Positions 29,552 to 64,000 of a DNA stretch of 64,000 nt are shown piece after piece. The position numbers and the translations under genes were made by a program. The notes under the pieces are model-generated. The model was not told the origin of the DNA, searched no databases, and worked only from the letters and a program-made list of their open reading frames with translations. Within the stretch, counting starts at the first letter, position 1. Each line of letters starts with the position of its first letter. The DNA comes from Staphylococcus phage SAC, in sequence record OR234014.1; one strand, given 5' to 3'.

Positions 29552-29798
29552 CAATTATGTTACGATTAGGTTCGTTACTCCTAACCTTCTTGTAGTCTCC
29601 TACAAAGTTCAGACTATATCTTAACCATATCTAATGAGACTTAGGTTCTCCCTGTTTCCAATCACTTGATTGTACATAATAGTCGTTGCACCTTCCTAGT
29701 AATTTATTAAGCTTGGCTCATGATTGTCTCAAATGAGAGAGTTCCCATGAATTAAAGGAGTTACACTTATAATATTTCTACTATAAGGGGCAAAATTT
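29552..29798 (-). mobile_element. ORF-less group I intron in the helicase Walker A codons
   Basis: Exon 1 ends ATNAG (GGT) and exon 2 starts KTEV, restoring GxxxxGKT. R element GTTCAACGACTA (29680-29690 region, reverse complement) and S element GATATAGTCTG (29610-29623, reverse complement). The 5' end resembles the nrdE intron. Confidence 0.7.
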
Positions 29799-30236
29799 AC
29801 CTGCATTGGTAGCTTGCTTACATATACCATTATAATTGACTAAACTATTAAACACAGCTTCATACTGATAGTCACGTAATGTAATCTTACCTACGTTATT
29901 ATCTAGTAGCTGTATTTCATCATCAATATCTTCTTCAGCTAAAAAGCTTTCAGATTTTTCATCAATAATTTCGTATTGAAAGTTATGTCTTGATTGTAAC
30001 TCACCTAGTAATGTTATCATCTTAGGTAACAACCCACTAGGGAATTTGTTCTCAGCATAATCGTAGAAATCCACATAACCATCCCACACACCTCGTTTAA
30101 AAGCTAAGCTATGTTGATAGCCCTCTTTCTTAGCTCCTAACGTTTTATGAACACGCTTAAGTATGATATCTTTAATATACCCGTCACTTTCATCAAAATC
30201 TACATATGTATATATATTCTGTTGTCTTAATTGCAT
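29799..30236 (-). CDS. SF2 helicase, exon 1
   Basis: RDYQYEAV (Q/Ia-like motif) followed by ...KQATNAG (first half of Walker A). The annotated KFCPL-stop tail is intron read-through. Confidence 0.7.
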
Positions 30237-62053: not shown

Positions 62054-62928
62054 TATAGCATTCCCCCAAAGAAACCACCTGAATGATTATCTTTAGATTC
62101 TTTTTTAGGGTCTTCTACCTGTATCTCTAAGTCCTCTTCTATACCATCATTAACTTTAAATGGCTCAGGTAGTACAATAACGTCTTCCCTTTTTAATAAT
62201 AGCTTCTGAGGTAAATTTTCAAACTTTGTATTAGGTTGATTAAATTTAGTATATTGGTATCGACTTTCTTTTAATATATCTGATACTACATATCTAAGTA
62301 CCATTAAAATATTTAAGGATATAGTTTTGTTTTCAAACTTAGCGTCCATGAATAATCTATTGTTCTCTATATTATAGTCATCTTCATAAACATTACCATC
62401 GTTAGATGTAATAAAGGTTACTTCTTTGACATCATAGTATAGAGGTATACCTTTTTGTATACGCTCTTTAGTAACATGGTATATAAGTTGTTGTGGCATC
62501 AATACTTCAGGAACAGTAAACCTGTCTCTATAAGATACTCGTTTTTCTAATTGTGTAGTTCCTATAGCTGTACCAGTATCTAAAATTCCTATATCTAAAT
62601 TGTTAGTTCCTTTTTCTTGAGATTGGATAGCCATTATTGTCTCTTTAGGAGGTAAATAGGCAATACCTTTACCGTGACACCTAGGACAATCTACTCTAGG
62701 ATGTCCTGTGTCAGGGTTAAGGCAAGGACAAAAGTAAGCCCTTTCCCACAGTACCTTTATACCTCTATCATTGACAAATCTTCTCATATCCTTAGTGTCA
62801 AACTCTAGTCTAGCTGTAGATAACTTTTGTTCTTGTTCATCTGCTTGTGTTGTAGATGTATACATAGTAGACTTATTAATTATATTAGAAGTATTATTAT
62901 TAGTACCTATCATAAAAGGTTTTTGCAT
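62053..62928 (-). CDS. structural protein with a Cys4 zinc-ribbon-like motif
   Basis: CPCLNPDTGHPRVDCPRCHG motif; 291 aa. Confidence 0.4.
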   Translation of the reverse strand: MQKPFMIGTNNNTSNIINKSTMYTSTTQADEQEQKLSTARLEFDTKDMRRFVNDRGIKVLWERAYFCPCLNPDTGHPRVDCPRCHGKGIAYLPPKETIMAIQSQEKGTNNLDIGILDTGTAIGTTQLEKRVSYRDRFTVPEVLMPQQLIYHVTKERIQKGIPLYYDVKEVTFITSNDGNVYEDDYNIENNRLFMDAKFENKTISLNILMVLRYVVSDILKESRYQYTKFNQPNTKFENLPQKLLLKREDVIVLPEPFKVNDGIEEDLEIQVEDPKKESKDNHSGGFFGGML

Positions 62929-62929
62929 T

Positions 62930-63146
62930 TAATATCTCCTTCCTACTATATGCCTATCATATTGGAGCCAAAGTAAGATTTTAACCCAGCTAATAGCTCT
63001 TTTATATCTTCATTAATTTGTAGTATTTGAGCACTTGCTCCACCATACATAGCAGATTGTGTAGTACCTATTGTTTCTGTAATACCATCTACATCTAGAG
63101 TTTTGTTTGCTATTCCTGCACCGATAATGAGATTACCATATGTTAA
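62930..63146 (-). other. orphan C-terminal coding fragment (about 65 codons, no start codon), possible 3' exon of a gene interrupted by the TnpB element
   Basis: Open frame ...LTYGNLIIGAGIANKTLDVDGITETIGTTQSAMYGGASAQILQINEDIKELLAGLKSYFGSNMIGI-stop. It begins right after a TAA inside the palindrome GTTAATTTAATTAAC at the edge of the TnpB downstream region. Confidence 0.35.
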
Positions 63147-63219
63147 TTAAATTAACTTCCTTTGTAAAATAAAAGGCATTATACATTCGGGTTATGGAAC
63201 CCTACTAAAAGCAAACATA
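63147..63219 (-). ncRNA. candidate IS200/IS605 right-end / TnpB-associated omega (re)RNA scaffold region
   Basis: Located immediately 3' of the tnpB stop codon. Contains hairpin GGGTTCCATAACCC and the palindrome GTTAATTTAATTAAC. Assigned by position and structure only. Confidence 0.3.
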
Positions 63220-64000
63220 TTATTGGTTTTGTTCTTTTAACCATTGGGAATTATGGTAGTTTTTTAAATTAATACTTGCATTTATATCCCTATCTTCTTC
63301 ATATCCACAAGCATTACATTTAAAGACTTTATCACCTAACTGTAATTTTAAAGCATTTCTTTTTCTTTCTCCGCAATTACTGCATATTTGTGATGATGGA
63401 TAATAAGTACTAGCTACTGTAAATTTTATACCTCTATCTTCACATTTATATTGTAATTGCTGTCTAATCATATAGAAATTAGAAAACTGTATTTGTTTTC
63501 TTTTTTGTCCTGTATATCCTTTGTCTTTTATTAAATCACGAACTCTTATATCCTCTACAATAATCTCTTTAGGATACTTTTCAACAATTTCTTTTGTTAT
63601 TTCATGTACATGATTTTTAAGGATATTTGACATTTTTCTATAAACTTTAGCTATCTTATTTTCTAGCTTTAAAACATTATTTGTTTTGGTGTGGTTAATA
63701 TCATATTTATTACTTAATCTTTTCTGTAGGTCAGCTAATTTTTTTTCTAACCTTTTCATTTTCTTGGAATAAATAATATTACCATATATTTTTCTGTTAG
63801 AACAAATTACGTGTTTTTTACCACTACCTAAGTCTATACCTATGACTTCGTTAGTATTATCCTTTTCTTTCTTGTATTGATTATCTACTTCAATTGAAAA
63901 AGATATATACCAATATTTACCATCATAGTAACATTTAGGGTTTAAAGGTTTAATGCTTTCATTCTCTAGTACTGATTTATTATTTTTATATGTACCATTA
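63220..64000 (-). CDS. tnpB: IS200/IS605-family TnpB (OrfB) RNA-guided nuclease homolog, 3' part; the ORF continues past the window end
   Basis: RuvC-I motif VIGIDLGSG, CYYDGKYWYISF, a C-terminal zinc finger CSNCG...CNACG, and RuvC-III-like DRDINASINL. The frame is open to 64000. Confidence 0.75.
   Translation of the reverse strand, partial: NGTYKNNKSVLENESIKPLNPKCYYDGKYWYISFSIEVDNQYKKEKDNTNEVIGIDLGSGKKHVICSNRKIYGNIIYSKKMKRLEKKLADLQKRLSNKYDINHTKTNNVLKLENKIAKVYRKMSNILKNHVHEITKEIVEKYPKEIIVEDIRVRDLIKDKGYTGQKRKQIQFSNFYMIRQQLQYKCEDRGIKFTVASTYYPSSQICSNCGERKRNALKLQLGDKVFKCNACGYEEDRDINASINLKNYHNSQWLKEQNQ

Follow-up and report, generated by a model that had tools for sequence, protein, structure and literature searches.

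IStrons have been reported from clostridia, bacilli, other Firmicutes and Fusobacteria, as well as from the Clostridium botulinum phages c-st and D-1873 (PMC4227781). Those of group B are inserted after AGGG, TGGG or GAGG, splice after a G, start with U and end in CGG, and splicing after G has been demonstrated experimentally for BcISt1 (PMC4227781, PMC13565253). They further carry a long AU-rich stem (15-34 bp, >80% AU) around their open reading frames (ORFs), an ISBth15-like ORF B and an ORF A of the IS607 type, which is frequently absent; copies devoid of any ORF are known as well (PMC4227781, PMC13565253). In the CboIStron of C. botulinum, the element switches between guide RNA and splicing (PMC10690162, PMC13521648). 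Here, we describe a related locus at the end of a 64,000-nt stretch of Staphylococcus phage SAC (OR234014.1; the whole stretch is called the window below). Positions 62,930 to 64,000 very probably hold the 3' part of a tnpA-less, IS607-type group B IStron that resides in the neck, or head-to-tail adaptor, gene of Silviavirus phages. We have little doubt about the architecture, that is, an IStron, a second exon and an omega-RNA scaffold.

The 2 kb around the locus match Staphylococcus phage StAP1 at 100% and Stau2 at 99.9% identity (Silviavirus, Herelleviridae). The genes run on the minus strand and the element is cut by the window edge; its remainder was taken from the Stau2 locus (L001), where window position w corresponds to position 68001 - w. 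Our search, which did not extend to the Stau2 genome paper or to a 2013 review of Staphylococcus phage introns, found no prior report of an IStron in Staphylococcus phages, Silviavirus or Herelleviridae, so an earlier mention is possible. The literature on Staphylococcus and Herelleviridae phages treats 'transposases' and group I introns separately. The element type is already known from clostridia; its host here, a lytic and therapy-relevant Staphylococcus phage, appears to be new.

The split neck gene and the predicted ribozyme

In genomes of the Stau2/StAP1 type, an annotated 250-aa 'tail fiber' ORF is followed by a gap of 436 nt, tnpB, 291 nt and the next gene, which starts at 62928. Remus and Romulus have the same flanks around an unannotated 608-nt gap without tnpB, and in KSAP7 the gap at this locus measures 700 nt. 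Alignment of these allelic forms reveals that ~430 nt 3' of the 250-aa ORF are common to Stau2, Remus/Romulus and KSAP7, that tnpB is placed between both arms of a long inverted repeat, and that KSAP7 retains just the last ~110 nt of the tnpB region. MR003, also a Silviavirus, phage K and hundreds of other Herelleviridae contain an uninterrupted gene of ~302 codons instead, annotated variously as neck protein, head-to-tail adaptor or 'tail fiber'. The split gene is this neck/adaptor gene, a homologue of phage K ORF45.

The boundaries were fixed by aligning MR003 with both Remus junctions (...ATATGGGG|TTACGATG... and ...AACATATGG|TAATCTC...), and the 5' junction, ...ATATGGGG|TTACG..., was set against the intron-free alleles of MR003, phage K and BE05. 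The insert comprises 1760 nt in Stau2, the 3' 865 nt of which lie in the window, and its 3' splice site falls between 63136 and 63135. Exon 1 (719 nt) and exon 2 (190 nt) add up to 909 nt, the length of the MR003 gene, and joining them restores ...IWG|NLIIGAG... in frame. An earlier note, made from the window alone, had described a start-less frame behind tnpB as the C-terminus of an interrupted structural gene and had called for alignment with element-free relatives. Comparison with MR003 and phage K has now defined the empty site with an exact in-frame junction, and by its sequence the orphan frame is the 3' exon of the neck/adaptor gene. It opens at 63146, right after the TAA at 63149-63147, as the note had it; its coding part, however, begins at 63135 and it stops at a TAG (62948-62946) rather than running to 62930.

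A plain insertion sequence (IS) that split or truncated the structural gene, or that landed between two small genes, without any splicing would fit the GenBank records, which annotate a 250-aa 'tail fiber protein' and a 'transposase' and nothing over exon 2. We regard this explanation as extremely improbable, given that the gene is a single ~302-codon ORF in hundreds of Herelleviridae genomes, that exon 2 has no start codon, that the 250-aa ORF merely reads 31 nt into the insert before its stop codon, and that the exact in-frame junction is accompanied by a covarying group I core. Neither of two observations that would have spoken against the earlier note was made, since exon 2 does not form a small gene of its own and tnpB does not lie between genes. 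Simple insertion and a domesticated TnpB, both offered in the earlier note, found no support, unlike its third option of tnpB inside a group I intron within a structural gene, for which the covarying core and the intron-free alleles speak.

The group I core that had been suspected upstream of tnpB is located in the ~430 nt at the 5' end of the element, outside the window. These nucleotides were aligned with the corresponding parts of DH2, two other Silviavirus copies and the IStron of C. botulinum p1BKT015925, and RNAalifold predicted a consensus of 97 pairs, 46 of which have changed on both sides with pairing kept; 94% of the cells on the consensus structure are paired. None of 500 shuffles reached these values, and sliding the partners by 1-3 columns left at most 14 compensated pairs. 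P7 (GACUAU/AUAGUC) is invariant, and helices are found at the positions of P7.1, P7.2, P8 and P9-P9.2. A single contiguous internal guide sequence pairs with both exons: P1 joins UAUGGGG+U to ACCCUGUG (8 bp), and P10 joins UAAUCUCAU to AUGAUAUUA with eight of nine positions paired. DH2 retains P10, where an A-to-G change yields a wobble pair. Judged by sequence and covariation, the insert is a group I intron that splits the neck/adaptor gene, and we strongly expect this predicted intron to be self-splicing.

At gathering thresholds, Rfam gave no match in the locus, and an E-value scan of the Stau2 locus returned chance-level matches only. The Intron_gpI model does match the 432-nt, tnpB-less Remus copy from end to end (22.4 bits, E 0.002). 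A junction derived from this alignment, with P1 formed by GUGUGUAGC/GUUGCACAU, also gave an in-frame product, with eight extra residues (YDDITLCV). It was rejected because the intron-free homologues have 302 codons, which GGGG|UAAUC reproduces exactly, and the trial P1 fails on the actual 5' exon, whose last base is G.

TnpB and the right end of the element

The frame at the window edge had been read as TnpB from its GIDLG, CSNCG/CNACG and DRDINASINL motifs, and translation together with Pfam, NCBIfam and PDB matches bears this out. Completed from Stau2, the ORF encodes 402 aa, starting outside the window at the equivalent of position 64429 and ending with a TAA at 63222-63220. Besides the above motifs (GIDLG with its Asp codon at 63834-63832) it contains IIVEDI, and both the RuvC D/E/D triad and the CxxC...CxxC zinc finger are intact. 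The matches span residues 12-390, including the N-terminal helix-turn-helix (HTH)/WED-REC region: Cas12f1-like_TNB (6e-22), OrfB_IS605 and HTH_OrfB_IS605 in Pfam, guided_TnpB in NCBIfam (2.6e-69, above cut-off), and the solved TnpB structures 8iaz (3e-43) and ISDra2 TnpB (1e-20). With 140 bits, the protein stays below the cut-off (350) of the NCBIfam IS607_TnpB 'exception' model. Outside Staphylococcus phages, the nearest TnpBs are those of C. botulinum phage c-st and of p1BKT015925, the replicon of the characterised CboIStron (39% identity); TnpB peptide patterns, searched for in representative bacterial genomes, turned up no close relative.

The TnpBs of Stau2 and DH2 are 88% identical, and a ratio of nonsynonymous to synonymous substitution (dN/dS) of 0.12, at dS 0.5, indicates that the protein is under purifying selection. 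Stau2, DH2 and a contig from IMG/VR retain the complete set of RuvC and zinc-finger residues. Directly upstream of tnpB lies the best promoter-like site of the region, TTGAAA-17-TGnTATATT (L001 3513-3541; tnpB start 3573), a strong Shine-Dalgarno sequence precedes the gene, and sister copies have TTGACA boxes in the equivalent place. The layout of the element is then a 5' ribozyme followed by a long AU-rich stem, with the promoter-like site, the Shine-Dalgarno sequence and tnpB in its loop. The 5' stem arm, the promoter-like site and the tnpB start are so closely spaced that no room is left for an ORF A, and tblastn detected no TnpA in the window.

Downstream of tnpB, the hairpin and the palindrome that the earlier note had pointed out are found as placed (Table 1). 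Over the about 121 nt that comprise the last tnpB codons and everything up to the 3' splice site, Stau2 and DH2 show only four differences, compared to a tnpB dS of 0.5. This right end is kept as a remnant in KSAP7 and DELF3, both of which have lost tnpB, and other IStrons, as well as the canonical IS607 elements of the Silviavirus VL10 and of Twort, have right ends that align with it. The tail after the stop codon, previously taken as 73 nt, measures 84 nt to the true 3' boundary of the element. The stem of the conserved hairpin covaries (GGGUU/AACCC, CCGUU/AACGG, CCAU/AUGG, CCGU/ACGG), and its loop is complementary to the last 5-6 nt of the element in every relative, represented by four sequence types. 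Loop bases CCAUA (63197-63193) form one half (PK-1) of the resulting pseudoknot (PK), and the last five intron nucleotides form the other (PK-2). The same architecture, with PK-1 in stem-loop 2 (SL2) and PK-2 at the 3' end, is present in CboIStron and is essential for CboTnpB cleavage (PMC13521648). The pseudoknot thus identifies the hairpin as SL2, explains why this copy ends in UGG instead of CGG, and places the end of the scaffold at the 3' splice site, so that the start of exon 2 becomes the predicted guide. Together with right-end conservation, SL2 and the covarying pseudoknot sustain the earlier suggestion that the structured region is an omega-RNA scaffold.

Table 1. Features of the locus (window coordinates) and pseudoknot types among relatives.
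Feature	Position	Strand	Basis or carrier
tnpB, C-terminal 260 codons + stop	63220..64000	-	translation; Pfam, NCBIfam and PDB matches
Right end / predicted omega-RNA scaffold	63136..63240	-	conservation; homology to IS607 and IStron right ends; 5' limit from conservation only
SL2 stem-loop GGGUU-CCAU-AACCC (GGGTTCCATAACCC)	63189..63202	-	covarying stem
3' arm of AU-rich inverted-repeat stem (GGAAGUUAAUUUAAUUAAC)	63142..63160	-	contains palindrome GTTAATTTAATTAAC (63156-63142)
Last five intron nt UAUGG, PK-2 half, terminal G = 63136	63136..63140	-	junction from MR003/phage K alleles; SL2-loop covariation
Predicted omega-RNA guide, first 16 nt of exon 2 (UAAUCUCAUUAUCGGU)	63120..63135	-	directly 3' of scaffold, as in CboIStron (PMC10690162); P10 8/9
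Exon 2 of neck/adaptor gene	62946..63135	-	1 nt + 62 codons + TAG; spliced ORF matches MR003
Pseudoknot CCAUA / UAUGG			this element
Pseudoknot CCGUAA / UUACGG			qdsa001, LSA2308
Pseudoknot CCAUGA / UCAUGG			PM56
Pseudoknot CGUUG / CAACG			c-st, Cbo, VL10, Twort

The 3' stem arm pairs with a 5' arm outside the window, GUUAAUUAAAUGAAAACUUCC, over 18 bp (11 + 7; 15/18 AU, 83%), and the two arms are 1330 nt apart. Other copies have different yet complementary arms. The palindrome within the 3' arm corresponds to an SL5-like hairpin in the omega-RNA form. As far as its sequence tells, it can either fold on itself, giving the omega-RNA its last stem, or complete the intron by pairing with the distant 5' arm. 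These alternatives match the guide-RNA/splicing switch known from CboIStron.

Related intron-plus-tnpB units occupy the tail lysin gene of qdsa001 (TnpB 75% identical), the portal gene of PM56 and the recombination exonuclease gene of LSA2308, each inserted after GG and ending in YGG. Their presence in different genes indicates that ribozyme and tnpB travel together. The units of PM56 (a Remus-type phage; L012, 990-2908) and LSA2308 (L011, 1010-2864) encode TnpBs that are about 41-43% identical, and the literature refers to portal and exonuclease genes of this type just as 'split' or 'intron-containing'.

These observations bear on the first model that we considered, in which two unrelated parasites are nested: an independent IS with tnpB as its only gene would have entered a peripheral hairpin loop of an older, classical phage group I intron, with the intron stem (GGAAGUUAAUUU...) as its guide. 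Remus and Romulus, which carry the intron without tnpB and with stem arms joined by 2 nt, indeed resemble the clean 'empty site' of such an event. The covarying pseudoknot and a comparison of the element to group B IStrons led us to drop this model, which we now consider very unlikely. The SL2 loop finds its partner, which covaries among relatives, in the five nucleotides (UAUGG) that close the intron; the IS thus has its right end at the 3' splice site and not at a hairpin loop. In addition, the intron-plus-tnpB unit recurs in clostridial IStrons and at no fewer than four genes, KSAP7 and DELF3 demonstrate that internal deletion generates forms without tnpB, and the CCUA before the supposed target differs from the G-rich target-adjacent motif (TAM) of IS607-type elements.

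Predicted guide, possible homing and allelic forms

We infer from the position of the scaffold that the first 16 nt of exon 2 serve as the guide. The guide proposed in the earlier note (63130-63146) has to be moved, since 63146-63136 still belong to scaffold and intron. CboTnpB uses the TAM TGGG with a scaffold ending in GG (PMC10690162); the phage element agrees in both, and the intron-free alleles retain a TAM-like TGGGG. For CboTnpB, G at TAM position -3 is most strictly required (PMC10690162). The phage's own copy would be safe because its target is split and because its right end offers AUGG, with U at -3.

From the anatomy of the element and the experiments on the related CboIStron, the following mechanism can be drawn. 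In the late transcript of the structural genes, the ribozyme would fold, pair both exons through P1 and P10 and excise the intron after a G, giving the predicted junction ...AUAUGGGG|UAAUCUC... (as read, ...CAAAUAUGGGG|UAAUCUCAUUAUCGG...). Excision would restore the 302-codon neck gene, which would render the insertion harmless. Transcripts from the internal promoter, or local folding of the right end (SL2, pseudoknot, SL5) in competition with the long stem, would supply tnpB mRNA and an omega-RNA of ~120 nt. TnpB and omega-RNA could then act as an RNA-guided homing endonuclease that cuts intron-free neck genes of co-infecting phages at TGGG(G) + TAATCTCATTATCGGT, and recombinational repair from the IStron-bearing genome would copy the element in. 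Frequent internal deletions would produce tnpB-less introns (Remus/Romulus) and right-end remnants (KSAP7, DELF3) that are still spliced and immune to cutting.

Whether TnpB actively drives RNA-guided homing is close to an even call, leaning slightly towards no. More tentatively still, an IStron that has lost its transposase and left-end repeats may now live as a site-specific homing intron in lytic Staphylococcus phages, and, as part of that tentative reading, its TnpB may operate with a naturally miniaturised omega-RNA of ~105 nt whose guide is the exon sequence read by P10. Every genome with this exon 2 sequence in the phage collection and IMG/VR carries the intron, which fits homing saturation and equally vertical descent.

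Several observations weigh against the explanation as a whole, the first of them concerning the target. The intron-free alleles differ from the guide at four of 16 positions (MR003, AAATCTCATCATTGGG; phage K and BE05, TAACTTAATTATTGGT), and no allele with a perfect guide target was found in the phage collection or IMG/VR, leaving present-day homing without a visible substrate. The right end extends for 84 nt after the stop codon as compared to 152-191 nt in relatives, and an internal segment of ~75 nt is absent. In the CboIStron omega-RNA, SL3 is essential and SL4 dispensable (PMC13521648), so the nuclease could be crippled, depending on whether SL3 or SL4 was lost. The left end has none of the TAACAATAAGTTACAA-type repeats present in other copies, which, along with the absence of tnpA, makes transposition of this copy unlikely. 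Furthermore, folding the right end as a single sequence gave no improvement over shuffles (z = 0.34), and a double change in the KSAP7 inverted-repeat stem, tried as a compensatory pair, was rejected as it yields a U-U mismatch. The Rfam match of the intron scores below the gathering score, and splicing, omega-RNA production and cleavage are all inferred.

An element that still splices while its TnpB and omega-RNA no longer cut DNA would account for the short right end, the absent tnpA and truncated left end, the repeated loss of tnpB in sister phages and the lack of a known susceptible target allele. In this case, tnpB would persist through recent ancestry or through a role other than that of a nuclease, for example RNA binding that modulates splicing. 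We consider such a passenger unlikely, given the dN/dS of tnpB and the RuvC and zinc-finger residues kept in Stau2, DH2 and the IMG/VR contig. The right end is far more conserved than synonymous sites, with SL2, pseudoknot and SL5 preserved, and CboTnpB cleavage survives deletion of SL1 or SL4 unimpaired (PMC13521648).

The idea of a recent insertion, raised in the earlier note, does not hold: the element is found at the same site in about 20 Silviavirus genomes, in phage DH2 (about 81-86% identical) and in one metagenome contig, from which we conclude that the insertion is not recent. The contig found in IMG/VR has a 93% identical copy at the same neck-gene site, and the copy of this window was seen at the neck-gene site only. 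DELF3 (L005, LC576631.1, about 2215-2760) has a 541-nt tnpB-less IStron remnant at this site, in which the P2-P5 region is replaced and the 3' end reads UGUGG. Its K-like exons combined with a Stau2-like right-end remnant hint at past lateral transfer. The phage-K-like exon 2 of DELF3 (TAACTTAATCATTGG) differs from the intron-free Kayvirus target at one of 16 positions, so that a DELF3-type guide would have matched Kayvirus phages.

In these phages, one locus naturally exists in four allelic states (empty, with the ribozyme alone, with ribozyme and omega-RNA remnant, and with the full element), which permits a direct test of whether tnpA-less IStrons spread via TnpB-guided homing between co-infecting genomes. 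TnpB-guided intron homing has so far only been proposed, in a 2026 review. If this interpretation is true, the element would represent a natural intermediate between transposon and homing intron, and therapy phages would carry an active programmable nuclease able to bias inheritance or exclude competitors in co-infection. With its short right end, the element may also offer an omega-RNA scaffold minimised by nature. In the genomes of Silviavirus phages, many of which are candidates for phage therapy, tnpB is listed as 'transposase' or 'mobile element protein', and current annotation fragments neck, tail-tube and tail-lysin genes or calls their products 'truncated'. Recognition of IStrons corrects these gene models and alters the reading of 'transposase' in safety assessments.

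Further introns were noted in the window and in sister phages. The tail-tube gene tmpA (58526-57498, minus strand), a 112-aa 'truncated' protein in GenBank, contains two group I introns (58200-57896 and 57822-57525), the second of which accounts for an apparent ribozyme in the tmpA 3' untranslated region (UTR). Joined, its three exons encode 141 aa and match the uninterrupted Kayvirus TmpA end-to-end as a single piece (94%). The 5' halves of both introns resemble the IStron ribozyme. The junction of intron 1 is ambiguous over a repeated TT, and the placement that leaves the intron its terminal G lets the 5' exon end in G, like that of group B IStrons. In the tail lysin gene, a 557-nt ORF-less intron (52359-51803, minus strand) has a core 83% identical to the neck-gene IStron ribozyme and keeps AU-rich stem arms and a CCUUU...AAGG remnant. 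It appears to join ORFs of 997 and 289 aa in frame, after AAAAAAGG and ending in UUAUGG (junction worked out by hand). Phage qdsa001 has its full IStron between two tail-lysin ORFs; the exon flanks differ, so its position in the gene may differ as well. The sole above-threshold match of a whole-window Rfam scan was Intron_gpI at 29589-29808 (minus strand, 91 bits), an unrelated conventional group I intron; IStron-type introns escape the Rfam model when the whole window is scanned.

Comparison with known introns and insertion sequences

Among the known systems, the element is closest to the group B IStrons, that is, BcISt1 of the Bacillus cereus group, CbISt1-4/CboIStron of C. botulinum, including phages c-st and D-1873, and the IStrons of C. 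senegalense. It has nearly all features of this group, the exceptions being the absent tnpA and the compensated C-to-U change at the 3' end. The absence of tnpA does not exclude membership because published group B members include 'ORF B only' and ORF-A-deleted forms (PMC4227781). Shared are a group I ribozyme at the 5' end, which is homologous to that of the C. botulinum IStron in sequence and covariation (all IStron introns were classed as IA2; Tourasse 2014), insertion after a GG-ending site (TGGG) with a 5' exon ending in G, an intron starting with U and a GG terminus. The AU-rich stem around the ORF, the ISBth15-like TnpB, the existence of tnpA-less or ORF-less derivatives and an omega-RNA pseudoknot that reaches the 3' splice site are common to both as well. 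In contrast to these relatives, the phage element resides in a strictly lytic myovirus of Staphylococcus, where it interrupts an essential virion gene. It ends in UGG instead of CGG, matched by the change in the SL2 loop, and sister copies end in ACGG or AUGG. Its right end is shorter by ~75 nt, the repeated TAAC/TTAC motifs are missing from its left end, and its TnpB is only about 39% identical. Moreover, the phage element stays at one homologous site across lineages, which is closer to homing than to transposition.

Group A IStrons of the IS200/IS605 type, such as CdISt1 of Clostridioides difficile, are likewise chimeras of intron, tnpB and omega-RNA, in which splicing and guide-RNA formation are mutually exclusive. 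They differ in their TTGAT-like pentanucleotide target, a 5' exon ending in U, a TCAG end, a short balanced stem and a tyrosine (HUH) TnpA with subterminal hairpins. None of these was seen here, where the flank is TGGGG, the end is UAUGG, and subterminal TnpA hairpins and tnpA itself are absent. The IS605 assignment made in the earlier note is therefore replaced by IS607.

Classical homing introns of phages, including T4 td/I-TevI, Twort orf142 and nrdE, and the HNH or LAGLIDADG introns of Romulus and Remus, employ protein-only endonucleases and have a 5' splice site after U, whereas the element described here encodes an RNA-guided TnpB with its own guide RNA and is predicted to splice after G. 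Its sole ORF is TnpB, and no LAGLIDADG, GIY-YIG, HNH or His-Cys box ORF was found in the intron.

Finally, canonical IS607 elements are known from Helicobacter pylori and occur in Staphylococcus phages, with a complete tnpA+tnpB element in VL10 (L016, OP940114.1, 2501-4373) and a tnpA-deleted copy with only a ~26-codon tnpA remnant in Twort (L013, 1402-2770). IS607 TnpA homologues were found by tblastn in 29 Staphylococcus phage records, which means that a transposase able to act in trans exists in this phage group. The canonical elements share the right-end architecture (SL2, pseudoknot, GG), the GG target and a TnpB of 37-38% identity with the neck-gene element, but have no ribozyme and are intergenic, and VL10 encodes a serine recombinase TnpA.

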